From an uncultured bacterium (lineage in GTDB: Bacteria; RBG-13-61-14; CAYWKU01), in NCBI GenBank assembly GCA_964459325.1, contig CAYWKU010000001.1:158040-222039 (forward strand): a DNA stretch of 64,000 bases, read 5' to 3'. Shown here in pieces: positions 11,263-45,970 of the stretch. A model generated the notes under the pieces. That model saw only the letters and a program-made list of their open reading frames with translations, was not told where the DNA came from and did not search any database. Position 1 is the first letter of the stretch; each line of letters begins with the position of its first letter. Position numbers and translations under genes: made by a program.

Positions 11263-12077
11263 TTATTCCGGAGTTCTCTGAGCGCCAGGAACACGCTTTT
11301 ATCGTCGTCGAATGAGCGGTTGAATTTATCGGAAAGCAACCCCCGTATTTCAGCGGAATCCAGGCGGAAGAACGGGCTGTGCTCGCGCTCGTCGGCCAGG
11401 GAGGTTTCCAGTATTTCTTCGCCGGAAGCCAGAAATTTCGCCTCCTCGAGCTTGCGCTTGGCAGCCGCGTTGCCCGGCTCCACCGAGAGAGCGAATTCCA
11501 GGTTTCTTTTGGCATAATCATGACCCGGGTGGAGCACGGTATCGCCGGGGAGTGTATGTATCTTGTTTTTGAAGCTTTCGTACAATTGCTCGGGGTTGCC
11601 GCCGAAGCGGGGGTTGCCGCAGCCGGCGACGAAAACGGTGTCTCCCGAGAACAGATGGGGTTGCCCGTCGGAGGGCTTGAACAGAAGGCATATGCTGCCC
11701 TGGGTATGGCCCGGAGTGTGTATTACCTGGACGGACATGCCGTCCACGTTGATGTTGCGGCCTTCGGAAAGCGGCTTCGGTTCTCCGTGTATGGTCACCC
11801 GGTCGGGGTCGTGGGCATAGAGCTTCGCCCCGGTTCGCCTGACCAGTTCCGAGTTTCCGCCGGTGTGGTCGGGATGGCCGTGGGTGTTGATGAGGGCGGC
11901 TATTTTTCCCAGACCGGCTTCGGAAACGGCTTCCATGATGTCGCCGGCGTCGACGGGGTCAATCGCCGCACACTGCTTGCCTTCTCCCGCTGAAAGAACA
12001 TAGCTCTGGTTGTCCGACCCCGCCGGTATTCTCAAAACAATCATTTCTTCTCCTCCTGAATCATTAGAAAGTATCAC
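11256..12077 (-). CDS. MBL-fold metallo-hydrolase (hydroxyacylglutathione hydrolase-like)
   Basis: HxHxDH motif INTHGHPDHTGGN; 7-bp overlap with the downstream PEP-utilising gene. Confidence 0.8.
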   Translation of the reverse strand: MILSNDSGGEEMIVLRIPAGSDNQSYVLSAGEGKQCAAIDPVDAGDIMEAVSEAGLGKIAALINTHGHPDHTGGNSELVRRTGAKLYAHDPDRVTIHGEPKPLSEGRNINVDGMSVQVIHTPGHTQGSICLLFKPSDGQPHLFSGDTVFVAGCGNPRFGGNPEQLYESFKNKIHTLPGDTVLHPGHDYAKRNLEFALSVEPGNAAAKRKLEEAKFLASGEEILETSLADEREHSPFFRLDSAEIRGLLSDKFNRSFDDDKSVFLALRELRNKW

Positions 12078-13024: not shown

Positions 13025-14164
13025 ATGAATAAAGAATTTGATGTTATGGAGATGTATTCGTCCGAATTCAAGGAAAAATGCGAGGCCGTCGCAAGCGCAC
13101 CCGGCAGGGTAAATCTTATCGGGGAACATACCGACTACAACAAGGGTTTTGTCCTCCCCATGGCGGTGGAGCGGAGGGTATGGGCGGCGGGCAAGCCGGC
13201 TTCGGGTGATGTTGTCGAGGTGGCAAGCGCCGATATGCCGGGGCATTTCATGGCCGAAAAAGGGCTCAAACGCACCCGGACGTGGGCCGATTATCCCCTC
13301 GGGGTGATATGGGCGCTCAGGGAGGAAGGCTGGAAAATCCCGGGCGTGAAAATTTACTACCGGGGAAACGTGCCCCTCGGCGGGGGTCTGTCAAGCTCCG
13401 CGGCCATTGAGGTCGCTACCGCTCAACTGCTGAAGGGGCTTTTCAACCTGCCCATATCGGCCCGGCAAATGGCTCTGACCTGCCAGTTGGCCGAAAACCA
13501 GTTCGTGGGCATGAAATGCGGCGCCATGGACCAGATGGCCTCGGCTCTCGGAGAAAAGGACAGGGCACTGCATATCGATTGCAGGGACTTGAAATTCCAA
13601 ACGGTGCCGCTGAAAATCGACGACCACAAGGTGGTGATAATCAACAGCGGCGTTAAAAGAGAGCTTGCCGCAAGCGAGTACAACAAGCGCCGAAACGAAT
13701 GCGAAGAGGCCGCGAAAAAACTCGGGGTCAAAAGCCTGCGGCGTGTTTCATCAAAAGATATGGATAAAATCGAGGCCCTGCCGGAGCCTCTGAGCCGGCG
13801 CGCACGGCACGTGGTGACGGAAAATGAAAGGGTCGGGCGGGCCGTGGATTGCGTTTCCGGTGGCGACCTCGAGGAGTTCGGCGAACTGATGAACGCGAGC
13901 CACTCAAGCTTGAGGGACGATTATGAAGTCAGCGTCCCGGAGCTGGATTTCCTGGTGGATGAGTGCAATAAAGTCAAAGGGGTGCTGGGAGCGAGGCTTA
14001 CCGGAGCGGGCTTCGGAGGATGTATAGTAGTGCTGGCTCACAAGGACTCGATACCGACGATAGAAAAGAAAATCCTTGGCGGCTACAGGAAAAAGTTCCC
14101 GAGCGAGCCTTCCCTCATGACCACCAACCCGGCCGACGGGGCCAGGGTCGAAGAGTTGATGTGA
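13025..14164 (+). CDS. galK: galactokinase
   Basis: GHMP kinase motifs APGRVNLIGEHTDYNKGFVLPMA and PLGGGLSSSAA. Start chosen at MNKEF; the upstream in-frame codons are not conserved. Confidence 0.85.
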   Translation: MNKEFDVMEMYSSEFKEKCEAVASAPGRVNLIGEHTDYNKGFVLPMAVERRVWAAGKPASGDVVEVASADMPGHFMAEKGLKRTRTWADYPLGVIWALREEGWKIPGVKIYYRGNVPLGGGLSSSAAIEVATAQLLKGLFNLPISARQMALTCQLAENQFVGMKCGAMDQMASALGEKDRALHIDCRDLKFQTVPLKIDDHKVVIINSGVKRELAASEYNKRRNECEEAAKKLGVKSLRRVSSKDMDKIEALPEPLSRRARHVVTENERVGRAVDCVSGGDLEEFGELMNASHSSLRDDYEVSVPELDFLVDECNKVKGVLGARLTGAGFGGCIVVLAHKDSIPTIEKKILGGYRKKFPSEPSLMTTNPADGARVEELM

Positions 14165-14182
14165 AGGGGAGCGTTGTCCCCG

Positions 14183-14200
14183 CCTACTGCTGCCTACCCC
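14183..14200. repeat. left direct repeat (CCTACTGCTGCCTACCCC) flanking the cassette island
   Basis: Matches 16089-16106 (CCTTACTGCTGTCTACCC), which forms the 3' end of the CDS 16091-16669. Confidence 0.6.
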
Positions 14201-14201
14201 C

Positions 14202-14317
14202 GGGTGGCCCGGACGTTATACGTCCGGGTTGTCCGGCAGGACAACAAGAAATAATGATGTACTAAGTCCGAGGGTATCAAATTTCCGACCCTACACGGGT
14301 GTTTACCCGTGCCATCC
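14202..14317. repeat. Repeat A copy 1 (GGGTGGC - hairpin ... hairpin - GCCATCC)
   Basis: Perfect palindrome CCCGGACGT-TAT-ACGTCCGGG at 14208-14228; terminal hairpin CACGGGTGTTTACCCGTG. Confidence 0.7.
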
Positions 14318-14445
14318 TAATGGTATCCAAACATCACAGAGCTGACATTCTGTTTAACGGATTTGCTCTTGACAATCATTCTTGTGCTGTGATAAGTTCA
14401 CAAAAATTTAAATAAAGAACAGATAGCCGCCAATAGGAGGGGGAA

Positions 14446-14676
14446 ATGAAAGAAATAAAAGTTATATTGAGCTTTCTGCTAATCTTGGCTATTTGTGGTT
14501 GCGCTTCCAAGGCTTATCAATCCGCCAGAAACAAAGACACGGTGGAAGCCTATAAAGAATTCCTCGAAAAATATCCCGACTCAAAGTTTACCTCAGAAGC
14601 AAAAGCCAGACGTGAAGAACTATACTTTCAAAAACCCTATGGGAAAGGGAACTATTGTAATTGCCAAAAATTTTAG
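14446..14676 (+). CDS. small lipoprotein with TPR-like motif (possibly the N-terminal part of a frameshifted gene)
   Basis: Signal peptide plus lipobox LAICGC. AYKEFLEKYPDSKFTSEAKA resembles a YbgF/CpoB-type TPR. Ends in an A5T4 homopolymer tract. Confidence 0.4.
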   Translation: MKEIKVILSFLLILAICGCASKAYQSARNKDTVEAYKEFLEKYPDSKFTSEAKARREELYFQKPYGKGNYCNCQKF

Positions 14677-15088
14677 CTTAAACAAAGTGAATTTTGGTTT
14701 TCCGTATCATGGATATCAAAGAGCTGAACTTTGGTTAAGGAATCACCCAAGATGGGGAACAGATGTTATGCTGCTCGTAAAAAGAGGTCAATATGATTGT
14801 GACATAATAAATGGATGTTCGTTGGCGGTTCGGTTTGATGAGGAAAATATATGGTGGTGTGAAGCACAGCAGCCGAAATCGGGAAGTAGTAATGTTTTAT
14901 TTTTGTCTCGGCCTGTTGCCTTCCTTTCAAGCCTACCGGCCCATAAAAAACTGCGTATTGAAGCCGCTTTCTATCAAGAAGGAAATCGTACTTTCGAATT
15001 TAATATACATGGTTTTGACCTATTCCGGTTGTGCTTGGGGGAAAAGAACGCTCAGCTCGTAAGGGAGCTTATTATAGACAAAAAGTAG
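14495..15088 (+). CDS. hypothetical protein (a +1 frame relative to 14446-14676; possibly the downstream part of the same gene)
   Basis: 197-aa ORF with AT-rich codon usage and no family recognised. Overlaps the lipoprotein ORF. Confidence 0.35.
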   Translation: MVALPRLINPPETKTRWKPIKNSSKNIPTQSLPQKQKPDVKNYTFKNPMGKGTIVIAKNFSLNKVNFGFPYHGYQRAELWLRNHPRWGTDVMLLVKRGQYDCDIINGCSLAVRFDEENIWWCEAQQPKSGSSNVLFLSRPVAFLSSLPAHKKLRIEAAFYQEGNRTFEFNIHGFDLFRLCLGEKNAQLVRELIIDKK

Positions 15089-15097
15089 GCGAGGGCG

Positions 15098-15250
15098 GGG
15101 TGGCCCGGACGTTATACGTCCGGGTCCGAAGGACAAGAAACGTTGCAGACAACCGGGGGTTTCTCAACGACCTTCCTCTAAGCTTGAAACTACGGTGGAG
15201 ATGTTTCTTGTTGCAGGCGCAACACAGACGCAGTGGCGTCTGTGCCACCC
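15098..15250. repeat. Repeat A copy 2 (153 bp)
   Basis: GGGTGGC + CCCGGACGTTATACGTCCGGG + TCCGAAGG ... TTTCTTGTTGCAGGCGCAAC + hairpin CAGACGCAGTGGCGTCTG + GCCACCC. Confidence 0.7.
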
Positions 15251-15342
15251 GCCCAAGCGGAGATTTGTTGCAGTTTGCAGCATAACAACAACAGTTAATC
15301 TAAAATATTTGAGTGTTTCTGCAAAACGGTAAGGAGGAATTT

Positions 15343-15891
15343 ATGAGTATTCCATTGGATATAGTTAGATTTTTATTTGATATTATAAAAAATCATTACC
15401 ATAAACCCAAATTGGAGTTGGAAGGGGATGAAGCAGCCACTGGCTCCAAAGTTTATGCGCACGTTGTCAAGGTAAGAAACAAAGGCAGAAGTATTGCGAA
15501 AAATTGTGTGGGGGAACTTACGATAGATATATATAAAAATGATATTGCACATATCCCTCAAAATGTTTTAAATGCCAATGGCTATTGTATTCATCAGAAC
15601 AATTTTAGAGCGATAAAAGATGAGGGATTATGCTGGTCTTTCGGCAATAATCCTGACAAAATAATGATAAATCCGCGTACCTATAAGAAACTTGATTTTT
15701 ATCAAGTATATATTGGTAGCCGAGAAATTGATATCCCGAGCGAAAAGGGATTTAAAAAAAAGAGGGTAAAACTGAAGCCCAAGGACTACATGGGTACAAT
15801 AACGGTAAGCGCTGAAAATGCAGAGCCAGTTACAAGAAGCTTCAAAATGATAGTTAAGAAAAACGATGTAGACTATGAATGGATAGATTGA
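15343..15891 (+). CDS. hypothetical protein (cassette ORF, low GC)
   Basis: Strong RBS AAGGAGG 6 nt upstream of the ATG at 15343. Lys/Asn/Ile-rich composition unlike neighbouring genes. Confidence 0.5.
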   Translation: MSIPLDIVRFLFDIIKNHYHKPKLELEGDEAATGSKVYAHVVKVRNKGRSIAKNCVGELTIDIYKNDIAHIPQNVLNANGYCIHQNNFRAIKDEGLCWSFGNNPDKIMINPRTYKKLDFYQVYIGSREIDIPSEKGFKKKRVKLKPKDYMGTITVSAENAEPVTRSFKMIVKKNDVDYEWID

Positions 15892-15907
15892 GCAGATTGA
15901 TAATGGT

Positions 15908-16049
15908 GGGTGGCACGGACAGTATTGTCCGTGTTCCGAAGGGGCAAGAGGATTAATCGTATTGTGTGAGGGGAAGGCGGGGACTCGTCAGCGCCGATAA
16001 TTAGGGAAAAAGATTTCTTGTTGCTTGCGCAACCCGGACGTATAACGTC
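15908..16049. repeat. Repeat A copy 3 (142 bp) with a diverged left hairpin and an inverted right-end palindrome
   Basis: GGGTGGC + CACGGACA-GTAT-TGTCCGTG + TTCCGAAGG ... TTTCTTGTTGCTTGCGCAAC + CCCGGACGTATAACGTCCGGG + GCCACCC. The right end is the exact reverse complement of the copy 1 left end (27 bp). Confidence 0.75.
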
Positions 16050-16090
16050 CGGGCCACCCTGGGCGTTTTATTGTGGTATTTGTACCCCCC

Positions 16091-16669
16091 TTACTGCTGT
16101 CTACCCTCTATCCCGGTTATAAGTACCGACGAGGCTATTGCGAGCCGGCGGTCGAAGAGGTTCTGCATGTCCTGTGAGAAGTCGAGGTTGAGTTTGAGGA
16201 CGAAGGGGTTGAAGTTCTGCTTGAATACGGCCACCGGCCGGGAGTTAATCGTGACCTGGAACTTTTGAGGTATCAGGTTGCTCAAAAACCGCCTGAGAAG
16301 TGCGAGGAACAGGCTGTCTTCGACGATTTTCCCTACTTCCCGGTCATTGTTGTCCAGTATGAGCCATTCGTCCCGGAAGATGGCTTTCAGGCCGCTTCTT
16401 CTCAATGCGCCGACTTTTTCTCCGGTGGTGTTGTCCACCACGTCGTAAGTGGCGGAGATGTCAAGCATTTTGCGCGCCTTTATGGAGAGTATCCGCTCCT
16501 GCTTGCTCTTGTCTCCGAACACCCCGATGTCTTCCTTAAGCTTGAAAGCCTTCAACTCCGAGAAAAACACCAGGTTGCCCTGCGGGTCGTAAATGTGGTA
16601 CGAGCCGCCGAAGATTTTGAATATGGTCCTTCTGACCATGTAGTGGGAATGCCGGAACCTTTCATCCAT
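16091..16669 (-). CDS. hypothetical protein (possible LURP1/Tubby-like fold, DUF567-like)
   Basis: 192 aa; weak resemblance (FKIFGGSYHIYDPQGNLVF). Its last 6 codons lie inside the right direct repeat. Confidence 0.35.
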   Translation of the reverse strand: MDERFRHSHYMVRRTIFKIFGGSYHIYDPQGNLVFFSELKAFKLKEDIGVFGDKSKQERILSIKARKMLDISATYDVVDNTTGEKVGALRRSGLKAIFRDEWLILDNNDREVGKIVEDSLFLALLRRFLSNLIPQKFQVTINSRPVAVFKQNFNPFVLKLNLDFSQDMQNLFDRRLAIASSVLITGIEGRQQ

Positions 16670-17001
16670 TTTCAGCTCCTTTCAATAACCCAATAGTAAT
16701 CGCCCGGTTTTGGTATATGGCCCTTATATCTCAAGGCGGTACTAAAAATACCGCATTCTGGAATTGACATTTTCGGCAAGACAGTAAGCGCACCGGATTG
16801 AAATTAAACACGTGGCGGTACGGATATTTTTTATTTTATGTAACTCTTCCAGGGTTTTATTAAAACCAAACCACCCGGCATTATGATAATTATGGGAACA
16901 CATGAAAATAATTGTTTGTTACTCTACTGCTTATAATTGCCAGAAATCAGTAGACTTTCCGGCATATTGTAAAATTCCATAAGCGTCATCTTTAACCATA
17001 T

Positions 17002-17778
17002 TTATCGCCCATCGACGTAATTCCGGCTCCCATTCAATATTTTTTTTGTCGGGAGAGGAGTGCTTAGATGATGCTTAATCTTATTTTTTATATTTTTTGG
17101 GATAATTGGTTTAATATAATTAATAATTTTTATTCTTTTTAACTTGCGCAAGGAACTAGTAGATTGCCTCCTGCCATCCGATGCATTCTTACGCTTAAAA
17201 ATGTCGGTAAAGTTAAATTCATAATCAACATTTAAAAAACGACAAATATCCGATAATACTGCATGAGGGGCTGCTATAAAATCTTCAAAGAATAGGATTT
17301 TAATTTGTTCATCGGTAAAGTATTTCCTATATTCTGAAATTATATTATAATAAAGACATGATTGAATTAATGATTTGTATTCCGTTACAGCTTTTGAAAA
17401 AACTTTAGGCATTTGTGAATATCCTACAGTTGTGTTTCTAAAATTATGTAAGAAACTGGACTCAATCTTATCAAGTGGATGCCTGACTATGTAAATTAAT
17501 TTCGCATTTGGAAGGTCATTCTTCAATCTTTGTGCAGCCTTTGAATAATACTGTCCAGTGTAACATGTAGATGCGTCGCCTATACATATTTCATTAGAAT
17601 GGTGTTTAAAAAATGATTCGTACCAACTCCATCCCTTGCTGTAATTATAGTCCCTTGAGAAAAAATTTGGCTCTTTTGGCTTGGACATACATACATCGGG
17701 ATGTTGTTGTAATAGACTCCAAATGCTGGTAGTCCCGGCTTTTGCGGCACCTATTATCAAAAAATTTGGCTTTATCAT
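17002..17778 (-). CDS. sulfotransferase family protein
   Basis: PAPS-binding P-loop IIGAAKAGTTS followed by a sulfotransferase-like body. Low GC, AT-rich codons. Start placed at MIKPNF. Confidence 0.7.
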   Translation of the reverse strand: MIKPNFLIIGAAKAGTTSIWSLLQQHPDVCMSKPKEPNFFSRDYNYSKGWSWYESFFKHHSNEICIGDASTCYTGQYYSKAAQRLKNDLPNAKLIYIVRHPLDKIESSFLHNFRNTTVGYSQMPKVFSKAVTEYKSLIQSCLYYNIISEYRKYFTDEQIKILFFEDFIAAPHAVLSDICRFLNVDYEFNFTDIFKRKNASDGRRQSTSSLRKLKRIKIINYIKPIIPKNIKNKIKHHLSTPLPTKKILNGSRNYVDGR

Positions 17779-17895
17779 GGATAGAATTATAACACACATA
17801 GCATGAATTCAGCAAAAGCGAGTCTGGTACTGAAGTCTTTCTTTGAGGGGCTATACCTTATTACCCGTTGGTTGGTGGAAAATAATCGGTGTAGG

Positions 17896-18762
17896 TTATG
17901 GAGAAGACTTGAACTTTTCATCCAGCTCGTACTTTTCCTTAACGCTAATCATCCGGGTGAAATCGTCGAACGTCATCATCTTGTGCTGTATGTCGAAAGT
18001 GTACCCGTGCTCCGGCAGGTGCTCGTAAGTATCGGATAATGCTTTCGGCGCCGCAAACAGGCCTGAGAGGACGTAACCGACGCTGATGAATCCGAATTGG
18101 CGGACTTCTTCGAGTGGCAAGAGAGGCGTTTTGCCGCCCTCTATCATGTTCACCACCAGCGGCCCGGGCACTTCGGCGGCAATCCTTTTCATCACGTCCA
18201 CGCTCTTGGGAGCTTCGATGAAAATCAGGTTCGCTCCCGCTTCCTTGTAGGCGTTGCCTCAGCGGATGGCTTCGTCCAGCCCAAGCGGCTCGCGGCCGTC
18301 TGTGCGGGCGGTGATGGCGACCTGAGCGTCCCCCTTTGCCTCGACGGCGGCCCGTATTTTGGCGATGTGCTCTTCGGCGGGAACCACCGATTTGCCGCGC
18401 ATGTGGCCGCACCTTTTGGGCCAGGTCTGGTCTTCGAGTAGCACGCCCCTCACGCCCATCCGTATAGCTTCTTTGACCATGCGCATAACGTTGAGTGCGC
18501 CGCCGTAGCCGGTGTCGCCGTCCATTACCACCGGGATGTTTACCGCGTTCACCACCCTCCAGGCGGTATCGAGTATTTGCGTCTGGGACATTATGCCGAA
18601 CTCCCGTTCTCCAAGCAGGGAGGCGGCCACTCCGAAGCCGGTCAGCACTACCGACCTGAACCCCGCCCGCTCGGCCAGTTTTGCGCTCAGGGCATCGTAA
18701 ACCCCCGCCACCAGGATAACCTGGTTGTCGCGCACCAAGGGGTGCATTTTCGGCTCAGTCAT
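17896..18762 (-). pseudogene. isocitrate lyase/PEP mutase family (2-methylisocitrate lyase PrpB-like) gene interrupted by an in-frame TGA
   Basis: N-terminal part 18259-18762 and C-terminal part 17896-18201 are in the same frame. A TGA at 18259-18261 sits where PrpB has AIERAQAYVEAGAD (here AIR*GNAYKEAGAN). Confidence 0.65.
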
Positions 18763-23720: not shown

Positions 23721-23789
23721 CCTTCGGAAAACACCTATACATAGCGAAATAAATTCATGCGTATGGAGCATCCGGAAACCGAGATTTTC

Positions 23790-23940
23790 CCCGGGCTGAA
23801 ACCCGGGGCTTAAATATACATTTGACTGCTTCCTGCACTGAAGTGCAGGGTTTCCGGTTCCCGGGAAACCCCGGCTTTTAAGCCGGGGAGTTTCACATTT
23901 ACCTTTAAGCCCCGGATTTTAATCCGGGGTGTTGTGCGCT
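23790..23940. repeat. cluster of five stem-loops; three share the CCCCGG-N8-CCGGGG form
   Basis: 23790-23809, 23845-23860, 23859-23882, 23880-23899 and 23921-23940, between convergent genes. Confidence 0.6.
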
Positions 23941-23977
23941 TATTGCGCCGTGTATAAAAGCCCCGAAATTCGTGTAC

Positions 23978-25426
23978 TTAACGCCCGGGACGGTAAAGCC
24001 TGCGCCACACGACCGCCAGGAATGGAACAAGCAAAACGAGTATTATATCGGCGCCCGGTATCTCGGCCTCCCGGTAATTGCCGACTGCGCAGCCTCCGCT
24101 CAAACCCTCTTCACCGCCTACCGTGGGGAATCGGTTTACCGTAACCAGTGAAGCGGCGGTATAGCCGGAAACCAGCCCGTCCGAGGGGGTGACCTCCAGC
24201 AGGTAATATCCCGGCAAATCGGGAGTAAACGATGTGCATTCGCCGGAGGTCGAATCCAATACGGCAGAAGAACTCTCAGGTTTAACTTTAAGCTCCCATG
24301 AGTAGGTAATTTGGTCGCCGTCCGAGTCGCGGCCTTGTGCGCAGACGGTCTTTTTTCTCAGAGCCGTCGCCGACGATGAGTCTACGCTTACGTTAGGGGC
24401 CGTATTTGCAGGGTCATTCACTTGAATGGCCCCGTAGGCCATACCCGCCTTGTTGTCGGGATTGATAACCATCAGGTCGTAGCCCCCGACGCTTCCCGTG
24501 AGGTCCAGCTTCATTCCGAACTGCGAGTAATCGGCGAACGAAGTCACGCCGGCCGCAGGGTCGGCCACGGGGGCGTCGTTTTGGTACACGTCAACCTCGA
24601 TGTTATTAACGCCGTCGGTTTCGATGAATCCGTGCCCTTCGACCTGAATTCCGTTCATAACCGACCCCTGGCTTCCTATGACTTTGTCCCTGAATTGTGA
24701 GTCCCCCGAAACTTTAAAACCCGTCACTTGCGGCGCTGGAATGTCGGAGGCGGTTTCCGGGTACAAAAATCTCAACCCGTCAATATCGTCCCGGTGCAGG
24801 GTCGCCGCTCGAACCGTGCCCGGTCTTATAATGCCGAACATGGTTGAGTGGGAGTAAGTTTCGTCATAAAGGTCGTGCAGCATGCACACGTGCCCCAGCT
24901 CGTGAACGAGCACGCTCAAAAGGTCGATTTCCGCGGTGGTCGGAAAACCTTCCAGGCTCCAGTTGAAATTCACACCGTTTATCTGCACGTCGGTTTCCGT
25001 CACTTCGCCGGTATAGCTGTCGAAATTCGGGCTGACCCAGTATGTTATCGCCAGCGCGTATTCGGTCCAATGCCAGTGATTGCTGTCCGATATCCATATA
25101 ACGGAATTGTATCCGTCGTTTTTACATGATATGCCGCCGTTGCACGAAGTGCTCCCGGCGTTCTGAAAACCGATTGCGGCGCCCTCCACCGAGCTCCAGA
25201 TTTCCATGGCTTCGTTCAGAAGAACATCTGTGCCGGCGGGCGCCGATTGTAAGTCGTGGTTTATTTCCAATGGCGCCGGCGGGTCGCCGGGGGAGGGCTT
25301 CAGCCCTCCCGCCGTGGGTCTCCATGCGGGCACGTCCTCGCCGGTTCTCCATATTTGCCAGGCCGATGCCTGGGAATATATCAGCGTAATGCACAACGCT
25401 ATTGCGGCGATACGGAGCGTCTTCAT
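23978..25426 (-). CDS. secreted zinc metalloprotease (HExxH metzincin-like) with PKD-like domain and a C-terminal hydrophobic anchor plus basic tail
   Basis: Signal peptide. VHELGHVCMLHD plus an STMF Met-turn-like segment. ITYSWELKV is PKD-like. C-terminus ADIILVLLVPFLAVVWRRLYRPGR. Confidence 0.65.
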   Translation of the reverse strand: MKTLRIAAIALCITLIYSQASAWQIWRTGEDVPAWRPTAGGLKPSPGDPPAPLEINHDLQSAPAGTDVLLNEAMEIWSSVEGAAIGFQNAGSTSCNGGISCKNDGYNSVIWISDSNHWHWTEYALAITYWVSPNFDSYTGEVTETDVQINGVNFNWSLEGFPTTAEIDLLSVLVHELGHVCMLHDLYDETYSHSTMFGIIRPGTVRAATLHRDDIDGLRFLYPETASDIPAPQVTGFKVSGDSQFRDKVIGSQGSVMNGIQVEGHGFIETDGVNNIEVDVYQNDAPVADPAAGVTSFADYSQFGMKLDLTGSVGGYDLMVINPDNKAGMAYGAIQVNDPANTAPNVSVDSSSATALRKKTVCAQGRDSDGDQITYSWELKVKPESSSAVLDSTSGECTSFTPDLPGYYLLEVTPSDGLVSGYTAASLVTVNRFPTVGGEEGLSGGCAVGNYREAEIPGADIILVLLVPFLAVVWRRLYRPGR

Positions 25427-25947
25427 TCCGTTTCTCCGTTGCCGGGAGCGTTTTTGCGCACGGCGATAATGCGTTTGCGGGCGGCATCGAAGGTCATGCC
25501 GGGAGATTTTCCCCCGCCCGGCTTGTGCGATATGACCCTCCTGCCGGTGTCTTTTTCCACACGTGTGGGGTAATAGCCCTGGTTGAATCCCGTCAGGCGG
25601 TAAGTGTGCCCGGATACCTTATCCAGCATAAGAAGGTAGGTTCGGCCGATTTGCAGATGAACCGCACCGGCCACGTGGAGACGCTCGTTGCCCGGTTCGA
25701 GCAGGTAAATCGTCTCCGGCGCCGGGTTCCCCGCTATAAATTTCTCCACCTGCACTTTCAGCAGGGTGTGAGGATAGCCTTTCCAGTTAATATCCGTATC
25801 ATCGAGCGGAGTTGCGATAACAATCAAATCCGCCCGGCGGGCCTGCCGGTTGAAGTCCATCTCCACCACTACGGTGGCAAGCGTTACTGATGCGGACATA
25901 AGCACAAAAAGTAAAATCGAAAGTAAATACCTGGCCATTTTTCGCAT
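25423..25947 (-). CDS. secreted hypothetical protein (co-operonic with the metalloprotease)
   Basis: Signal peptide LLSILLFVLMSASVTLA; 4-bp overlap with the downstream gene. Confidence 0.45.
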   Translation of the reverse strand: MRKMARYLLSILLFVLMSASVTLATVVVEMDFNRQARRADLIVIATPLDDTDINWKGYPHTLLKVQVEKFIAGNPAPETIYLLEPGNERLHVAGAVHLQIGRTYLLMLDKVSGHTYRLTGFNQGYYPTRVEKDTGRRVISHKPGGGKSPGMTFDAARKRIIAVRKNAPGNGETE

Positions 25948-25999: not shown

Positions 26000-26824
26000 C
26001 TAAGTATGATTGCCGACGGTATGTTTGGCTATTATCCGCCTGAACATCTCCACCAGCCCCTGTGCCAGGAGGTAGGCGCCGCGGGCCTCGAGGTTGGATT
26101 CGATGGTGCGGTCGAAAAACAACCTGAATTCGGACTCGAACTTGCCTTCAGCCGGCCAGTAGCAGAAGAGAAAAGGAACTTTTGGGAGAGGATGGAGTAA
26201 GGACATGTGGGGCGCCGTGGGATATTCCGCGTGATACTCGCGACCGAACAGGTCAAGTATGTCGAGAAAAAGCTCCGTATGTTTATCGGCCATATCGTGA
26301 AATGCCTTATGGCAGCGGTGGGCATAGAAGTGGGCCCAGTCCCTTGCTTCCTTTAGTTCTTTGAATACCGTCCATTCCTCGACCGGGTCTTTTCCCGCGC
26401 CGAACAGGACGTATTGCAATAATGACACATGTATCCAGTGGTTGACGTGACATATGGTATGCAGCTCTCCCTCCTTGTCCAGCTCGAAGGGTTTACCCAG
26501 GCACCTTATCATAATCCCGCCATTTTTGATTTCCCCGCCCAATCTTTCGGCGGCTTCGGTGAAATCGACGTTACGTACCTGTCCCTTCAGCTCCTTGACT
26601 AACTGCTCCGCGCTGGTTTCTTCCGAAGCCTTTTCCTCGGCTAATTCGTTATTTATGCGCTCGATTATTTCCTCATCGAGGTACGGGCAGTCGCGGGGGT
26701 CTTTCTGTCCCCGGGAAACCAGTTGAGCGAAAGCCATACACGTGGACACACCGCATTCTCTACAATTAGTCCGGGGAGTGTGTTTCAATATGTACGGTGC
26801 GCTCAGGGTTACTTTCTGTTCCAT
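26000..26824 (-). CDS. Fe-S domain (C-x2-C-x4-C-x16-C, PF04060-like) protein, DUF3786-like
   Basis: N-terminal CRECGVSTCMAFAQLVSRGQKDPRDC matches the RnfB/CFeSP N-terminal Fe-S motif. Confidence 0.55.
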   Translation of the reverse strand: MEQKVTLSAPYILKHTPRTNCRECGVSTCMAFAQLVSRGQKDPRDCPYLDEEIIERINNELAEEKASEETSAEQLVKELKGQVRNVDFTEAAERLGGEIKNGGIMIRCLGKPFELDKEGELHTICHVNHWIHVSLLQYVLFGAGKDPVEEWTVFKELKEARDWAHFYAHRCHKAFHDMADKHTELFLDILDLFGREYHAEYPTAPHMSLLHPLPKVPFLFCYWPAEGKFESEFRLFFDRTIESNLEARGAYLLAQGLVEMFRRIIAKHTVGNHT

Positions 26825-26927
26825 GGTGTCACTCTCGAGTGTTTCAAATTAAATATCCATGTTTCAAGATTTGTATTTTAGACGAAGTTGTCAAGAAAAA
26901 AGATTCGAGTCGGGTTTTTACGAAAGC

Positions 26928-28364
26928 TTAAGGTTTTTCTTCCCGCGCCTGCTGCTTTTTCTTCTTGATGAGGGCTTCGAAAGCCTGCGGAATCCGGGGC
27001 GCCAGTATGAGCAGGTCGGATATATCGGTGGGCGCATCCTGCCCGTCGCCGTTATCGCCGTAAAGAATGTTTACAACCTTGCCCTTGAAAAGGATGGGTA
27101 TAAGGAACGCGCTGCGAGGTTTTTCCCCGCCCGTCAGCTTTAGAAAACGTTCGTTGAGCGGCGTATTCGGTATCGAGCCCAGGTAAAAGGACATGGAATC
27201 GTGCACCGTCTGGAAAATGCCGGGCGAGTTCAGGGGAATCATTATCCCCTGTACCGTCCGGGTGTTAAGCGAGCCTCCCAGTCCGTCCCAGCCCATCGCT
27301 ATACCGCTGCGGGTAATAAACAGCGCCGCTCGCTTGAAGTAACTCAATGCGAACCGCAGCACCACGTTGCTCAACTCCTCCCGGTCGGTAACTTCGTTGA
27401 GCTTTTCCATCGTTTGTGACGGGGAGAGGGCTTCCTGCACTTTCCAGGCTTCCTCTTCCGCCTCCTCTTCAATCTCCTCATCGGAAGGGGCAACCAGCGG
27501 CTCGGAGACTATATCCTCCAAGTCGAGTATTTCCTCCTCCGCCTCGTGAGGAGCGGCTTCCGCTTTTTCAGTCTCTTGAGCCTCCTGCGGCGGAGGTGTA
27601 GCGGCTTTTTCATGAGATTCGGGTGGTGGAGGAGGTTGAGTATCGGGAGCCGGGGGCGGGTGGGCTGGCGCCTGAGGTTGTGCCGGGGTTTCTTGTGCGG
27701 GTGCTGAAGTGGATTCAGCAGCTTCTCCTTCGACCAGCCCCTGCGAGCGGTTGTATTCGTTGAGAAGCTTTTCAAAGTCTTCCTGTGAGGAAAGGTCTTC
27801 CTTGAGCTCGAAATCCAGTCCCTTTATGTCCGGATGCTCCTTCGGGGGCGGTTTTGACCCCTGCTTTTGTGGGGAAGCGCCGGAAGGTTTACGCTTCAAT
27901 ACTTTTGAGGCCAGGTGCTTGTACCGGTGGTCCCGGGGGATGCCGTAGTATTTCTCCCGCAGGGTCTGCACTACTATCTCGGGAGATACGTAAGGCTTGA
28001 TGCGCTTGCCGGTGGCGAATTGTATCTCGTCGAAAGCGTTCACGTCGGCGGGGTCGCTCATGAGCAGACTGATGGAATTGCCGTCCAGCGCCAGGGGCAC
28101 TACTTCGTGTTTGGCCGCCAGTTTCCTTCCGAGCAGCTTGACCACTTCCGGTTGCGGGGGCCTGAGGCGGAACGGGTTGATAGTGGGGCAGTTATGCTTT
28201 TTGGAAAGCGCCTTGCTCAACAGGCCCAGGCTGACGTATCCCAGCTCCAGGAGATTAGTCCCCAGTCTGCCCCCGAAAATAACCTGGTTCTGAACCGCTT
28301 CCTCGAGCTGAGCGGACTTCACCACTCCCGCGGAAAGGAGCATTTTGCCCAGGGTAGCTTTCAT
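26928..28364 (-). CDS. T2SS-E N-terminal (MshEN/GspE_N) domain protein with an acidic, Pro-rich linker and a C-terminal uncharacterised domain
   Basis: LLSAGVVKSAQLEEAVQNQ...LGYVSLGLLSKAL and LPLALDGNSISLLMSDPADVNAFDEIQFATG match GspE_N. Roughly 150 aa of low complexity. Confidence 0.6.
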   Translation of the reverse strand: MKATLGKMLLSAGVVKSAQLEEAVQNQVIFGGRLGTNLLELGYVSLGLLSKALSKKHNCPTINPFRLRPPQPEVVKLLGRKLAAKHEVVPLALDGNSISLLMSDPADVNAFDEIQFATGKRIKPYVSPEIVVQTLREKYYGIPRDHRYKHLASKVLKRKPSGASPQKQGSKPPPKEHPDIKGLDFELKEDLSSQEDFEKLLNEYNRSQGLVEGEAAESTSAPAQETPAQPQAPAHPPPAPDTQPPPPPESHEKAATPPPQEAQETEKAEAAPHEAEEEILDLEDIVSEPLVAPSDEEIEEEAEEEAWKVQEALSPSQTMEKLNEVTDREELSNVVLRFALSYFKRAALFITRSGIAMGWDGLGGSLNTRTVQGIMIPLNSPGIFQTVHDSMSFYLGSIPNTPLNERFLKLTGGEKPRSAFLIPILFKGKVVNILYGDNGDGQDAPTDISDLLILAPRIPQAFEALIKKKKQQAREEKP

Positions 28365-28948
28365 TTTTTCTTCTTGAGGTCTTGTTTGGCTTTCTCGATT
28401 CCTTCATTCACAGCGTCCAGCGGCACGCCGGAGCGCATAGCTTCCCTGTCGATGCCGTCCTCCAAATATTTCCGGGCCTTTTCCAATTCGGACTTGAATC
28501 CCTGCAATTTGTTAAAACACTCTGCGGAGGCTTGCTGGTTTTTGATAGTGGGCATAAGAAGCGATTGCCTCCTCAACTCGTTGCATTTCGGCTCCAGGTC
28601 GGCAATCCGGTTCTCGAGGTCCTGCACCCTCATGTAAGCGCTGTAAGCTTTTTCTTTCCATTCGGTGTAGGTTTTGCTTTTTTGAGGCTTTTGTTCATGA
28701 GGTGGAGGCGGAGGCGTTGCCGCTGCGCCGCCTTCGCCTGTAGCGGTGTCACTTTTGCCCTTTATTACCACTTTTTGAGCCTTGTCTTTGTACTTTGACG
28801 GTACCTGGTTCTTGTATTCCACGTAGTGTATGTTCCCTTTTTCATCCACCCATTTCCAGAGCACCGTTTCGGCCAGCGCCGAGGTGGACAGCACGAGGAA
28901 TACCGCCGCCAGGAATGATATTAATAGAAAACCTGCTTTTCTGTTCAT
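28361..28948 (-). CDS. DUF4124 domain periplasmic protein
   Basis: Signal peptide plus WKWVDEKGNIHY signature and a coiled-coil C-terminus; 4-bp overlap. Confidence 0.6.
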   Translation of the reverse strand: MNRKAGFLLISFLAAVFLVLSTSALAETVLWKWVDEKGNIHYVEYKNQVPSKYKDKAQKVVIKGKSDTATGEGGAAATPPPPPHEQKPQKSKTYTEWKEKAYSAYMRVQDLENRIADLEPKCNELRRQSLLMPTIKNQQASAECFNKLQGFKSELEKARKYLEDGIDREAMRSGVPLDAVNEGIEKAKQDLKKKK

Positions 28949-29092: not shown

Positions 29093-30259
29093 TCATTTCA
29101 ATTCGCCCGTCGGAGGTCTCATCCTGAATTTCTGCAGTATTTCATGGAACTTGCGCAAATCCAGGGGCCGTTGTCGGCTGAAAAAAAGGTGGCGGGGGCA
29201 TTTGCAATCCGAGGAGCCGAAACCCTCCGGTCCACGGACAAAAGCCTCGGCCAATTCCGACGCGATATTGCATTCCAGCCGCGAAGATGACCGGAGCGGC
29301 AGGGCGGTAACCTCGTCGGATACCGCCCGCAGGGGGTCTATGTGCCAGTGCATGCGTTTGCGAATTCGCACGTGCCTGTTGATGCGGGCGTCGAGGTTTT
29401 TTATGGCCGAGCCGACGTATATGTGCCATCCCTTCTCGAAAGTCACCTTACCGAGGCTCCCGACCTCGATGCTGCGATTTCTTTTGAGGTGTAGCAACAA
29501 AATATATGCTCCGCCGTCGCGGGCTTCGCGGTCAATGTGTTCCCAGGGTATTTTTACCCTTTTTACGTTGGGCTTCAGTTTGAGCGACTGCGTCCACTCC
29601 ACCGATACCGGAAGCGCTCTCACCCTGTGTCGCACGTCCAGCAGCTTTCGGCTGAAAGCGAGGTCGGTGTGAAAGTCCGGCATGAACCATTTTATCCCGG
29701 CGTGGTGAATAACGAACATTACGGCCACTTCAGTACCCTTTTGGGATAATGCCTCCAGCTCAACGAGATGTCGTTTTCCGCGCTCGGTAACCGCGTCGGG
29801 AAACATTGCAACGCCGTTCCCGAACAGGGTGCAGGATTTTACCTCAAGGTACATTTCCTTACCCGCTCTTTCCAACAGGAAGTCGAACCTGCTGCGACCA
29901 TGAGGTATTTCGGCCCTTATAATCCGGGCGCCTTCCATTCCCGGCGCCAGTCCGAGCTCTATAAGTCGCCCGGCGACCCGATTGGTGTAATGAGTGTGCA
30001 GAAAAACGGGCCTGCCGTCGCGCTCGACGGCCATGGCGGTGTAATCGGTGGAGGCGCTTCTTTTGCGGTTGGGCGCCAGATAGAGCTTAGCATCCGGCAA
30101 AAGCAGCTCATGCAGCCGGCCCGGATTGGGTAGGAAAGCCTTTACTTCGCGGCCTTTTCCAAGGGAGGCGTGTACGAGAAAGCGGTTGGGTCTTCTCACA
30201 AACCCGGCGGTAATAATCCGGCCCCAGTCGCCTATGGTCAGCGCTTCTTTATCGGACAA
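29093..30259 (-). CDS. sfsA: SfsA nuclease fused to a C-terminal DUF123 (GIY-YIG-like) domain
   Basis: About 240 aa of SfsA-like sequence, then GAYILLLHL...WHIYVGSA...MHWHIDPL typical of DUF123. Confidence 0.6.
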   Translation of the reverse strand: MSDKEALTIGDWGRIITAGFVRRPNRFLVHASLGKGREVKAFLPNPGRLHELLLPDAKLYLAPNRKRSASTDYTAMAVERDGRPVFLHTHYTNRVAGRLIELGLAPGMEGARIIRAEIPHGRSRFDFLLERAGKEMYLEVKSCTLFGNGVAMFPDAVTERGKRHLVELEALSQKGTEVAVMFVIHHAGIKWFMPDFHTDLAFSRKLLDVRHRVRALPVSVEWTQSLKLKPNVKRVKIPWEHIDREARDGGAYILLLHLKRNRSIEVGSLGKVTFEKGWHIYVGSAIKNLDARINRHVRIRKRMHWHIDPLRAVSDEVTALPLRSSSRLECNIASELAEAFVRGPEGFGSSDCKCPRHLFFSRQRPLDLRKFHEILQKFRMRPPTGELK

Positions 30260-30484: not shown

Positions 30485-30558
30485 GGGTGGTTAGCTCAGC
30501 CAGGTAGAGCATCGGACTTTTAATCCGAGGGCCGAGGGTTCGAATCCCTCACCACCCA
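30485..30558 (+). tRNA. tRNA-Lys: tRNA-Lys (anticodon UUU)
   Basis: Cloverleaf with acceptor stem GGGTGGT/ACCACCC, D-arm TAGCTCAGCCAGGTAGAGCA, anticodon loop CTTTTAA and T-arm GGTTCGAATCC. Confidence 0.85.
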
Positions 30559-41544: not shown

Positions 41545-42204
41545 TTACATGAGTATAAGCTTATAAGGGGTAATCTGGACTCCCCCGATGTTTACCGGCT
41601 CCGCCTGCGCGAACTGGAGACTCTCCATGCTTTTGACGGCTTCGTGCGCCTCCGGGGTCAGCCTCACCTCCAGCTCTCCCTCCACGGCCTCTCCCAGCCG
41701 CGAGGCCATGATGGCCTGTTCGCCGAAAACCTGGCTCTCGGTGACTATCATTCTGCCGGTTCCGATGCCGAGGCATACGGCCAGCTTTGTTCCGTCGGAC
41801 TGCTTGCTGTTATGCTCCTCGAAAGCCCGGCTCAAGGCCCTTGCGGCCATCACTGCGTCCATGGTTTTGTCGAATGTGACCACCAGGCTGTCCAGTTCGG
41901 CCCGGAGCACATTTCCGCTCAGGGTGCTCAGGATTGGTTTCGATATTTCGTGAGCTTTTTCCACCATGCTCAGGGCAATGACCGTGCCTTTTTCGCGGGT
42001 CAGTTCCAGGAAGCTGGAAAAATCGCTCACCATGACCGTGCAATCCCTGCCGAACTCGGAGTCTATCCGGCTCGCGGCGCTTTGCGGGTCGGTCTGGCTG
42101 GAAGCGATTTGGTTTAACAGTTCCTTCAGCCGACTGCTCATGATTACATTACCTCCCTTTTTTGCGCCAATACCATGAAAAATATCGTCAAAAACCGATG
42201 GCAT
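41545..42204 (-). CDS. class III nucleotidyl cyclase homology domain protein
   Basis: TVMVSDFSSF...LAVCLGIGTGRMIV resembles the CHD; start may be the internal MSSRLKE. Confidence 0.45.
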   Translation of the reverse strand: MPSVFDDIFHGIGAKKGGNVIMSSRLKELLNQIASSQTDPQSAASRIDSEFGRDCTVMVSDFSSFLELTREKGTVIALSMVEKAHEISKPILSTLSGNVLRAELDSLVVTFDKTMDAVMAARALSRAFEEHNSKQSDGTKLAVCLGIGTGRMIVTESQVFGEQAIMASRLGEAVEGELEVRLTPEAHEAVKSMESLQFAQAEPVNIGGVQITPYKLILM

Positions 42205-44354: not shown

Positions 44355-44876
44355 CTATTCTACCTCAACAGTAGGACCGGTGCCAAGGATGTAAGTTTCT
44401 TTATACTGTGCGCTACCTTCACCGGAAGTCATCATTTGTAGTTTTCCGCTTCGGTTGGAAAAACCGTAGATTGTGAACTTAAGGCTGCCTTTTTCTGATA
44501 TGGTCATAACGAACGGCGCATCAGTACGGTAAATATCTAGGCCGCCCTCCTCAATCATGACCATAAGTATCATTTCAGCCTTATTTTTATCTATGGTGAG
44601 GAAGCCTCCGTTTTCAAGTACCTTTTTTCCCACAGCAGTTGCAACCAGCCCGCCCTCGGATTCCCTGAGACCTGCACCCACTTCCACGTAAATCGTTTTG
44701 TCTTTTACGTCTGAGAAGTTAGCTCCTTCCAGAGCCCGGTTAACGCTCATGGCAAAGACCATGGAGCCGGTGGCGCTTACAGCCGCGCTTCTTGGTGGCA
44801 CGAAGTATCGCTGTGTGCATGCAGTTGCAAGCAACATGGTAAAGAACATTGCTACAATTAAGGCTTTTTTGGACAT
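44355..44876 (-). CDS. lipoprotein, uncharacterised
   Basis: Signal peptide plus lipobox LLATAC. Confidence 0.5.
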   Translation of the reverse strand: MSKKALIVAMFFTMLLATACTQRYFVPPRSAAVSATGSMVFAMSVNRALEGANFSDVKDKTIYVEVGAGLRESEGGLVATAVGKKVLENGGFLTIDKNKAEMILMVMIEEGGLDIYRTDAPFVMTISEKGSLKFTIYGFSNRSGKLQMMTSGEGSAQYKETYILGTGPTVEVE

Positions 44877-45916: not shown

Positions 45917-45970
45917 TTTAAACTTCCTATCTCATTTAATTTGAAAGATCAAAGTAAGTTTGTAGTTGGA

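Follow-up and report, generated by a model that had tools for sequence, protein, structure and literature searches.

What does an MshEN domain act on when no pilus or secretion ATPase is attached to it, and which of the genes beside it share its task? MshEN is the second widespread c-di-GMP receptor module after PilZ, and to our knowledge nearly all that is understood of its function comes from fusions to pilus or secretion ATPases and to NfrB-type glycosyltransferases. In the window, by which we mean the whole 64-kb stretch of DNA from an uncultured bacterium analysed here, five co-directional minus-strand genes encode a DUF4124 protein, an MshEN/GAF-like protein, an FeS/DUF3786 protein, a 174-aa secreted protein and a metzincin-like protease (Table 1). 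The preliminary description had grouped the first three (28948..28361, 28364..26928 and 26824..26000, strand and positions that we confirmed) into one operon and suggested a c-di-GMP- or redox-responsive module. Its domain calls (MshEN, DUF4124, PF04060 and DUF3786) were borne out by profile searches, marginally so for DUF4124.

Table 1 Features of the locus, in coordinates of the window.
Feature	Position	Strand	Basis or remark
Gene 1, secreted DUF4124 protein, 195 aa	28361..28948	-	PF13511, signal peptide, homologues upstream of MshEN/GAF
Gene 2, MshEN–acidic disordered linker–GAF-like protein, 478 aa, predicted cytoplasmic, no enzymatic domain	26928..28364	-	Profiles, model, Foldseek
Whole MshEN domain, residues 1-150, pLDDT >88	27915..28364	-	AlphaFold model, Foldseek
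Tandem 24-residue c-di-GMP-binding motifs (predicted), residues 4-27 and 33-56, 5-residue spacer VIFGG	28197..28355	-	NF053729, column statistics
Disordered acidic Pro-rich linker, residues 155-310	27435..27902	-	AlphaFold model, composition
C-terminal GAF-fold domain (modelled), residues 311-470	26955..27434	-	Foldseek; motifs GW(D)G.G, YGDNG conserved
Intergenic gap before DUF3786 gene, 103 bp	26825..26927	-	Only in part conserved with L006; no convincing promoter/terminator
Gene 3, FeS(PF04060)+DUF3786 protein, 274 aa	26000..26824	-	PF04060, PF12654; lineage-specific insertion, outside conserved core
[4Fe-4S]-type Cys4 domain, residues 17-48	26681..26776	-	C21, C24, C29, C46; PDB/Foldseek matches
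Gene 4, small secreted protein, 174 aa (171 aa from second ATG), no family assigned	25423..25947	-	Always directly 5' of protease
Gene 5, exported metzincin-like zinc protease, 482 aa	23978..25426	-	PF00413, zinc motif, Met-turn

The 478-aa product of gene 2 matched PF05157 (E=3.4e-16, 59.5 bits against a cutoff of 23.1) and the NCBIfam c-di-GMP_motif NF053729 (44.7 bits, cutoff 38), and its modelled MshEN domain matched MshE with c-di-GMP (5htl_B; Foldseek E=1.9e-9, target TM 0.73, 138 columns), with further matches to PilF GSPII domains. Like the N-terminal domain of MshE (5HTL) and the GSPII domains of Thermus thermophilus PilF, it combines this fold with the tandem 24-residue motifs and 5-residue spacer by which the c-di-GMP-binding motif was defined (PMC5013675). 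Each residue found critical in Vibrio cholerae MshE (G11, G40, L10, L54 and L58; PMC5013675) has its equivalent here (G6, G35, L5, L49 and L53), in columns that are 98–100% conserved among 117 family members, the L5 column accepting L, I or F. Q27, the equivalent of Gln32, was invariant in the same 117 proteins, the Leu triads were conserved, and every Gly and hydrophobic position of the motif fitted in residues 4–27 and 33–56, with R33 also present. Unlike MshE and PilF, the protein has Thr (T4) at the Arg9-equivalent and Lys (K56) at the Gln61-equivalent position, and both columns are variable across the family. The relaxed form of the motif permits K at the last position, but not T at the first, and changes of Arg9 and Gln32 in MshE shifted affinity less than five-fold (PMC5013675). 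Judged by these residues, the motif is largely intact, and the 478-aa protein is predicted to bind c-di-GMP, consistent with the receptor role first proposed for it.

MshEN domains are best known from T4P and T2SS ATPases (PMC5013675). No T2SSE ATPase domain was detected in the 478-aa protein by Pfam or NCBIfam, and TIGR02538, whose cutoff is 675 bits, reached 55.6, over residues 5–146 only. An identity as a T2SS/T4P assembly ATPase (GspE/PilB/MshE) was ruled out because the C-terminal T2SSE domain is missing; the protein has instead a 156-aa acidic linker followed by a GAF-fold domain. The linker had been described as long, acidic and proline-rich, which its composition confirmed (16% Pro, 24% Asp+Glu, pI 4.3, net charge -25); it was disordered in the AlphaFold model and contained two short motifs that are conserved, (D/E)LxxE(E)(E/D)F at residues 190–197 and E(I/V/F)(L/I)xL at 278–282. 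The C-terminal domain had been called uncharacterised, and in the Pfam sense it is, since neither GAF nor any other model matched it at E<=10 beyond noise; its fold was recognised by Foldseek. In the model (pLDDT >90 over this domain) it is a highly diverged GAF fold, with matches to the Lcd1 GAF domain (5w10; E=1.5e-7, TM 0.69–0.70) and to 3ci6, 3trc (PtsP GAF), 3oov and 3eea. The likeness to the cAMP-binding domain of Lcd1 (5W10) and to PtsP/EI-Ntr (3CI6, 3TRC) lies in the fold (Foldseek E=1e-7 to 1e-6, target TM about 0.63–0.70), whereas sequence identity was 13–19% and the family carries motifs of its own, GWDG.G and YGDNG. Weak GAF_2 matches were found in only 6 of 109 family representatives.

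Counted by its C-terminal domain, the MshEN–linker–GAF-like family comprised 2,892 clusters at 50% identity and occurred in at least 267 species genomes, mostly of Desulfuromonadales, Geobacteraceae and Myxococcota; genomes of the Geobacter and Anaeromyxobacter lineages have members. The N-terminal MshEN domain was present in 100 of the 109 sampled representatives, and an added PilZ domain in two. Here MshEN has only a disordered acidic linker and a cryptic GAF-fold domain as fusion partners, which would make this large family a variant among the known c-di-GMP receptors. The family likely includes MXAN_2924 of Myxococcus xanthus, a predicted c-di-GMP-binding MshEN protein (PMC5013675 Supplementary Table 3): its N-terminal 74 residues, the fragment over which the comparison was made, carry the family signature (LG..., QLIYGGRLGSNLVEL) and showed 42–57% identity to family members (E about 1e-17). 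FrgA (MXAN_1130) was also considered as a characterised relative and rejected, as its architecture is MshEN-UNK-HEAT and its N-terminus matched no family member. A literature search yielded no functional study of MshEN+GAF proteins, MXAN_2924 or DUF3786.

The start of the MshEN gene (28364) overlaps the stop of the DUF4124 gene (28361) in an ATGA, so that the translational coupling noted earlier was seen. The 195-aa DUF4124 protein begins with a Sec-type signal peptide (residues 1–26, ending ALA|E), followed by the DUF4124 motif (WKWVDEKGNIHYVE), a PPPPP-containing spacer and a charged helical C-terminal domain (residues 95–195) with two conserved Cys; the middle segment contains 17.6% Pro, and 39% of the C-terminal 101 aa are charged. 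PF13511 matched at 22.6 bits against a cutoff of 22, which makes the DUF4124 call marginal, and among orthologues the match was unmarked in L003 and weak in L001 and L006. The order of segments resembles that of TfpC (NGO0783) of Neisseria gonorrhoeae, a DUF4124 type IV pilus stabilising factor that keeps pili extended and is made up of a Sec signal, the DUF4124 region, a segment rich in Pro and a charged coiled coil at the C terminus (PMC7593972). In these features the 195-aa protein is TfpC-like in layout, a likeness drawn from sequence features. It has no pilus genes nearby, and its partner would be a cytoplasmic MshEN protein, a pairing not described for TfpC.

The two most distal genes of the locus also overlap in an ATGA (174-aa gene end at 25423, protease start at 25426). 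A word-index homologue search with the 174-aa protein, limited in reach by the index, recovered only itself and its counterpart in L006, the 82% relative. The 482-aa protease matched PF00413 at 25.8 bits (cutoff 24) and the myxosortase-dependent metalloprotease model NF041905 far under its cutoff (E=1.3e-8). Its zinc motif is HELGHVCMLHD, and orthologues keep HExxHx5D, with Asp and no Gly, versus the HExxHxxGxxH of M10; the protein further contains the Met-turn S(T/V)M(F/Y)G and a PKD-like domain, and its C terminus is a GGC–TM helix–RR tail resembling a sorting tag. The rhomboid gene of the window was rejected as a rhombosortase (29.9 bits, cutoff 84). Periplasmic proteolysis controlled by c-di-GMP is known from LapD/LapG, and the linkage of a c-di-GMP receptor gene to an exported protease gene is similar here, by analogy only: there is no transmembrane receptor, the receptor and protease families differ, and no adhesin substrate was identified.

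The 274-aa product of gene 3 joins two domains, matching PF04060 (E=1.9e-12, 47.1 bits, cutoff 23) and PF12654 (DUF3786; E=5.7e-31, 107.8 bits, profile positions 1–176 of 176). The predicted C-x2-C-x4-C-x16-C cluster was confirmed as C21, C24, C29 and C46, which are invariant in 92 homologues. The Cys4 domain shares its motif and a roughly 50-residue fold with RnfB and with the N-terminal [4Fe-4S] domain of the corrinoid/iron-sulfur protein (CFeSP) large subunit AcsC/CdhE (2h9a_A, E=5.4e-8; 2ycl_A, Foldseek rmsd 1.3 A over 46 residues, 43% identity). Unlike AcsC/CdhE, the remainder of the protein is DUF3786, with no TIM-barrel or B12 domain, and this part had no PDB fold match (best E>0.8). 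An identity as CFeSP large subunit or RnfB failed, as scores were far below cutoffs (NF003195, 51.9 bits against 306; TIGR01944, 24.6 against 68.7) and the match was confined to residues 8–74.

To which of these genes the MshEN gene belongs was indicated by gene order in related genomes. The order DUF4124–MshEN/GAF–small secreted protein–metzincin, with no DUF3786 gene in between, recurred in at least five further lineages at 51–72% identity. The whole four-gene block was found in the window, L006, L001/8/96 and L003/93; loci L094 and L098 (MshEN/GAF–p17x–M10) and L099 (DUF4124–MshEN/GAF–p17x) were cut by contig ends, and L092, L101 and L157 kept the DUF4124–MshEN/GAF pair alone. A DUF4124 homologue lay immediately 5' of the MshEN/GAF gene in L001, L003, L006, L092, L099, L101 and L157. 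Intergenic distances within the block were short or overlapping, while the genes outside it differed among the loci. By this comparison the evolutionary core consists of four genes, encoding the DUF4124, MshEN/GAF-like and small secreted proteins and the metzincin protease. The protease pair is co-directional, as had been noted, yet it is not merely downstream, since the conserved order ties it to the MshEN gene.

The same comparison bears on the grouping proposed initially, that the DUF4124, MshEN and FeS/DUF3786 genes form one c-di-GMP/redox operon in which the Fe-S protein gives redox input or output to the receptor. This order recurs in L006 (82% identity) and in an assembly of the same organism from an independent read set, all three genes point the same way, no terminator was predicted between them, and GC3 of the DUF3786 gene (63%) is like that of its neighbours (60–67%). 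However, within the block the DUF3786 gene occurred only in the window and L006; it was missing at the same position from L001/L008/L096, L003/L093, L094, L098 and L099, and no DUF3786 gene was found in the flanks of about 150 other MshEN/GAF loci. Three DUF3786 homologues that were inspected (39–52% identity) were solitary, and their unrelated surroundings held neither an MshEN nor a DUF4124 nor a protease gene. In the window, the DUF3786 gene is set off from the MshEN gene by 103 bp and from the 174-aa gene by 52 bp, whereas the conserved pairs overlap, and in an NJ tree (160 columns, no support values) the window and L006 were nested within the clade of block-bearing loci, which implies a single gain. 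No mobile-element repeats or deviant composition were found around the gene. The three-gene operon is thus largely refuted by the gene-order test and has become very improbable, and with DUF3786 limited to two loci and its homologues alone elsewhere, the redox-responsive reading has no comparative support. The DUF3786 gene appears to be a later gain, a passenger in the block rather than part of its core.

The four-gene order could itself be incidental, with the MshEN/GAF protein acting as a general c-di-GMP effector on targets encoded elsewhere and its neighbours kept by descent and functionally unlinked. The family is widespread, and outside the clade of the window its neighbours vary (AOR, M23, DUF362, Lgt/M14, GT2, acyl-CoA dehydrogenase): no neighbour was common to more than 10 of 80 clustered species loci, those sampled were metabolically unrelated, and none of about 115 more distant loci with enough flank had the DUF4124, 174-aa or protease neighbours. 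The general function of the family therefore cannot hinge on the block neighbours. Moreover, L092 lost or never had the protease pair, the products belong to different compartments, and conservation within one clade could be partly due to shared descent. Yet the block survives to 51% identity while both flanks change, the window, L001 and L006 all retain the ATGA overlap between DUF4124 and MshEN genes, and the gap to the next gene is 31–48 bp in L001 and L003; we regard incidental synteny as unlikely, though the most serious competitor. Less probable still is a type IV pilus or type II secretion accessory, in which the TfpC-like protein would act as stabiliser, the MshEN/GAF protein as a c-di-GMP regulator docking on a machine encoded elsewhere, and the protease as a processor of pilins or surface substrates. 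Such a role would accord with the shared TfpC layout, with the closest structural matches being MshE and PilF from the machines where MshEN is most familiar, and with the requirement of N. gonorrhoeae pili for a zinc metalloprotease, Mpg (PMC7593972). But Mpg is an M23 peptidase and not a metzincin, the DUF4124 score is marginal and TfpC was compared by description only, the receptor has no T2SSE domain, and no pil or gsp genes were found in the 64-kb window or in the flanks of related loci.

We favour, at about even chances, a c-di-GMP-binding adaptor that is made together with a surface protease pair and a periplasmic protein of TfpC-like layout, with DUF3786 as a passenger. The MshEN/GAF-like protein would be a receptor with no catalytic output domain, binding c-di-GMP by an N-terminal four-helix bundle built of the tandem motifs; the signal would pass to the diverged GAF-fold domain, the two conserved linker motifs or both, which may serve as partner-binding surfaces. 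In this clade the receptor would be co-produced with three exported proteins and translationally coupled to the TfpC-like one, and its likely output would be c-di-GMP-dependent control of the cell envelope or surface, for example surface proteolysis or stabilisation of a surface structure. The FeS/DUF3786 gene would have entered the block in the ancestor that the window organism shares with its nearest relative, keeping a redox or cofactor role of its own. Against this adaptor proposal, the receptor is cytoplasmic, the three conserved neighbours are exported, and the block encodes no transmembrane link. The block may be co-transcribed. No terminator-like site was predicted on the minus strand between 23500 and 30600, and promoter and terminator counts there equalled the shuffled-sequence expectation, so the scan is uninformative on operon structure.

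If MshEN/GAF-like proteins are adaptors, they would explain part of the unexplained c-di-GMP output of metal-reducing and social bacteria, and their clade-specific link to a TfpC-like protein and a surface protease offers a concrete, testable target. A bolder reading, which we consider improbable, is that they make up a large and so far unrecognised class of c-di-GMP adaptors lacking enzymatic domains, spread over Desulfobacterota, Myxococcota and neighbouring phyla, and that in this clade the adaptor reads cytoplasmic c-di-GMP as half of a trans-envelope circuit governing the export, anchoring or activity of the TfpC-like factor and the surface metzincin with its sorting tag. If true, c-di-GMP would act on surface proteolysis or on the stability of surface structures by a new route, one that differs from LapD/LapG and from the pilus ATPases. 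For annotation, DUF3786 should not be given a c-di-GMP-related function from this neighbourhood. Rfam searches at the gathering threshold and at a permissive E-value detected nothing but a tRNA, and neither a c-di-GMP riboswitch nor a leader; the same genome also codes for PilZ and REC-PilZ proteins as further c-di-GMP receptors.

The locus is an MshEN domain fused to a cryptic GAF domain, within a clade-specific envelope gene block. The preliminary description had read the sequence accurately: the three minus-strand ORFs in 26000-28948, their domain matches, the cysteine motif and the coupling of genes 1 and 2 were all recovered, the start of gene 2 lying within the stop codon of gene 1 (ATGA). 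The gene 1 protein begins with a Sec-type signal peptide (ending ALA, before E), followed by a short DUF4124 motif, a PPPPP-containing spacer and a 101-residue C-terminal domain (39% charged) that bears CxxLRR…C. The NCBI model NF053729, which matched gene 2, is specific for the c-di-GMP-binding MshE-type motif. Gene 3 lies 103 bp after gene 2 and 52 bp before the 174-aa gene, and its product has the cysteine pattern C21-x2-C24-x4-C29-x16-C46.

Genes of the locus and the immediately downstream genes
Feature	Coordinates	Strand	Remarks
Gene 1, DUF4124 protein, 195 aa	28948..28361	-	PF13511 22.6 bits, cutoff 22
Gene 2, MshEN/GAF protein, 478 aa	28364..26928	-	PF05157 E=3.4e-16; NF053729 44.7 bits, cutoff 38
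Gene 3, FeS/DUF3786 protein, 274 aa	26824..26000	-	PF04060 E=1.9e-12; DUF3786 full-length E=5.7e-31
Secreted protein, no family, 174 aa	25947..25423	-	Downstream of gene 3
Metzincin-like protease, 482 aa	25426..23978	-	ATGA overlap with 174-aa gene

An AlphaFold2 model of the MshEN/GAF protein, built from an alignment of 117 homologues, was confident for residues 1-150 (pLDDT >88) and 311-470 (pLDDT >90), with a disordered linker at 155-310 (16% Pro, 24% Asp+Glu, pI 4.3). Within this otherwise variable linker, two short motifs were conserved, (D/E)LxxE(E)(E/D)F and E(I/V/F)(L/I)xL. In Foldseek searches of the PDB, the N-terminal domain matched c-di-GMP-bound MshE (5htl, E=1.9e-9) and the GSPII domains of PilF. 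The C-terminal domain, previously described as uncharacterised, had no match among Pfam models, but its predicted structure matched the GAF domains of Lcd1 (5w10, E=1.5e-7, TM ~0.7) and PtsP (3ci6, 3trc), and we therefore regard it as a cryptic GAF fold. No ATPase or other output domain was found in the protein with Pfam and NCBIfam models.

The putative ligand site was judged against the motif and mutagenesis of MshE, in which substitution of G11 or G40 abolishes c-di-GMP binding and changes of charged residues have effects of less than 5-fold (PMC5013675). The equivalents of both glycines (G6 and G35), of the leucine-triad residues L10, L54 and L58 (L5, L49 and L53) and of Gln32 (Q27) are present in the window protein. 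Across the 117 family members, G6, G35 and Q27 were invariant or nearly so, leucine occupied the L49 and L53 positions in 115, and the L5 position was always hydrophobic (L/I/F). The Arg9-equivalent position is Thr in the window protein and variable in the family, and Lys stands at the Gln61-equivalent position, where family members have K, Q or R. Since the critical glycines and leucines are kept and charged-residue changes cost MshE less than 5-fold, the MshEN domain likely binds c-di-GMP. Further c-di-GMP receptors are encoded 28 kb from the locus, namely a stand-alone PilZ protein (56412-56942, +; TIGR02266 'gmx' paralogue family, 72.6 bits, cutoff 68.7) and, in an overlapping gene, a REC-PilZ protein (56929-57666, +). 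The TIGR02266 family is of the Geobacter/Myxococcus type, and the presence of these two proteins indicates that the organism uses c-di-GMP and belongs to the deltaproteobacterial type.

Full-length homologues of the MshEN/GAF protein number in the hundreds, all annotated as hypothetical. When each GTDB species was represented by one genome and scanned with a sequence pattern, at least 267 loci encoding the protein emerged. Most belong to Desulfuromonadales, Geobacteraceae, Anaeromyxobacteraceae, Myxococcales and unclassified 'Deltaproteobacteria'; a few are from Nitrospirota and Omnitrophota. An exhaustive HMMER search (E<=1e-3) queried with just the C-terminal domain found it in 2,892 clusters at 50% identity; among the matches listed, it almost always lay at or close to the C-terminus. 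Of 109 sampled representatives, 100 had MshEN at the N-terminus, six gave weak GAF_2 matches, and in two the GAF-like domain was followed by PilZ. The GAF-like domain is thus coupled almost exclusively to c-di-GMP-binding modules, which is our main argument that it would serve a c-di-GMP adaptor as its output or as the part that binds partners. Two family members, P0231 (583 aa) and P0235 (491 aa), have the order MshEN – GAF-like – PilZ, with two different c-di-GMP-binding modules on either side of the cryptic GAF. The MshEN–linker–GAF-like architecture is absent from the domain-architecture table of PMC5013675. The same study predicted c-di-GMP binding by M. xanthus MXAN_2924, whose N-terminal 74 residues, the only fragment considered here, bear the family's N-terminal signature. 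Among characterised MshEN proteins, only FrgA has an unknown domain; it proved unrelated to the family and was rejected as a relative.

Gene contexts were gathered for 170 loci and scanned with HMMs made from the window's neighbour genes. The nearest relative, L006 (82% identity), carries all five genes as in the window. Loci L001, L008 and L096 (59%) and L003 and L093 (51%) have DUF4124 – MshEN/GAF – a 171-187-aa protein – a protease of ~490-500 aa, without DUF3786, the genes overlapping or separated by 31-48 bp. The same junctions were visible on the shorter contigs L094, L098 and L099, and the DUF4124–MshEN/GAF junction in L101 and L157; L092 (50%) kept only this pair. The block is flanked by purA/serA in the window and L006; in L001 the flanks hold genes for an fn3 protein and URO-D, and in L003 a restriction-modification-like gene of type ISP (N6_Mtase/Type_ISP_C) and one for an acetyltransferase. 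Below ~48% identity, ~115 loci had enough flank to be judged; none carried any of the block neighbours, and their contexts were heterogeneous. When the GAF-like domains were compared in an NJ tree, the window and L006 were nested in the block-bearing clade with L003 basal, which implies that the four-gene block was ancestral to the clade and that the DUF3786 gene was gained once, in the lineage of the window and L006. L003 (contig k141_1764841) has, ~3.6 kb downstream of its block, a gene for a REC–MshEN protein (11657-11967), so that this neighbourhood holds a second MshEN-type receptor.

The first ~50 residues of the FeS/DUF3786 protein are homologous to the [4Fe-4S] N-terminal domain of the large subunit of the corrinoid/iron-sulfur protein, CFeSP (2h9a, E=5.4e-8; 2ycl superposition, rmsd 1.3 A, 43% identity), and NCBIfam scores rejected membership of CFeSP or RnfB. 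The DUF3786 body was modelled confidently (pLDDT 93.8), with no PDB fold match in Foldseek. Three DUF3786 homologues (39-52% identity) are solitary genes beside unrelated functions. No repeats or compositional anomaly were found at the inserted gene. In the 103-bp region upstream, a direct heptamer repeat, TTGAAAC (minus strand, 26841-26847 and 26861-26867, 20 nt apart), is not conserved in L006; TTGACAACTTCGTCTAAAATACAAATC, further upstream, is partly conserved there.

The other block products appear to be exported. The protease has the sequence HELGHVCMLHD (HExxHx5D plus Met-turn across orthologues), a PKD-like domain and, at its C-terminus, GGC(G)C followed by a hydrophobic helix and then a basic tail, an arrangement resembling MYXO-CTERM-type sorting tags. 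A rhomboid-family protease of the window (54265-54984, +) was rejected as the rhombosortase for this tag (TIGR03902, 29.9 bits against an 84-bit cutoff). The 174-aa protein was conserved in six lineages, with no relatives detected beyond them. The layout of the DUF4124 protein resembles the one described for N. gonorrhoeae TfpC, a periplasmic factor that maintains type IV pili in their extended state (PMC7593972). Directly after the protease stop, non-coding 23788-23976 gave weak, sub-threshold Rfam matches on both strands (NrsZ, HgcC, anti-hemB; E 0.02-0.3), probably reflecting chance or a structured 3' end.

The best-supported reading, to which as a whole we give about an even chance, is that the MshEN/GAF protein binds c-di-GMP and acts as an adaptor without an enzymatic domain. 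In this clade, it would be made together with a TfpC-like periplasmic protein via translational coupling and co-expressed with the secreted protein and the surface metzincin-like protease; the FeS/DUF3786 gene would be a passenger inserted into the block. Of this reading, the analysis shows the folds, the motifs and how the gene order is distributed; ligand binding, the adaptor role, co-transcription and a connection with the exported proteins are inferred. The protein could also be a general c-di-GMP effector whose neighbours are incidental, which we consider rather unlikely. The heterogeneous contexts of the ~115 more distant loci speak for it; the recurrence of the block between different flanking genes speaks against it.

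An accessory module for pili or secretion seems improbable. The 64-kb window contains no pilus or secretion genes. Least credible is the three-gene c-di-GMP or redox operon of the preliminary description. Its likely c-di-GMP receptor was supported, but its three-gene unit was not, as the order DUF4124–MshEN–DUF3786 was confined to the window and L006. The adaptor reading, with its inferred mechanism, fits known c-di-GMP signalling logic throughout, and for a large, uncharacterised family the block supplies a testable hypothesis.

Between purA and the DUF4124 gene, the window contains a single ORF in which SfsA, with OB and nuclease domains, is joined to DUF123/GIY-YIG (29093-30259, -), and a tRNA (30485-30558, +). 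Since in L006 only a tRNA separates purA from the DUF4124 gene, the SfsA–DUF123 gene seems to be a second insertion specific to this lineage, bordering the block on its upstream side. A stretch at ~14000-18000 (GC 41-43%, window mean 54%), with three ~190-aa ORFs lacking Pfam/NCBIfam matches and a sulfotransferase, may have been acquired horizontally as an island. Other ORFs without such matches, 173-438 aa long, lie at 3083-4399 (+), 41545-42204 (-) and 44355-44876 (-), and the 173-aa ORF adjoins genes for a CsgG/LpoB-like lipoprotein and an outer-membrane beta-barrel (44927-46567).
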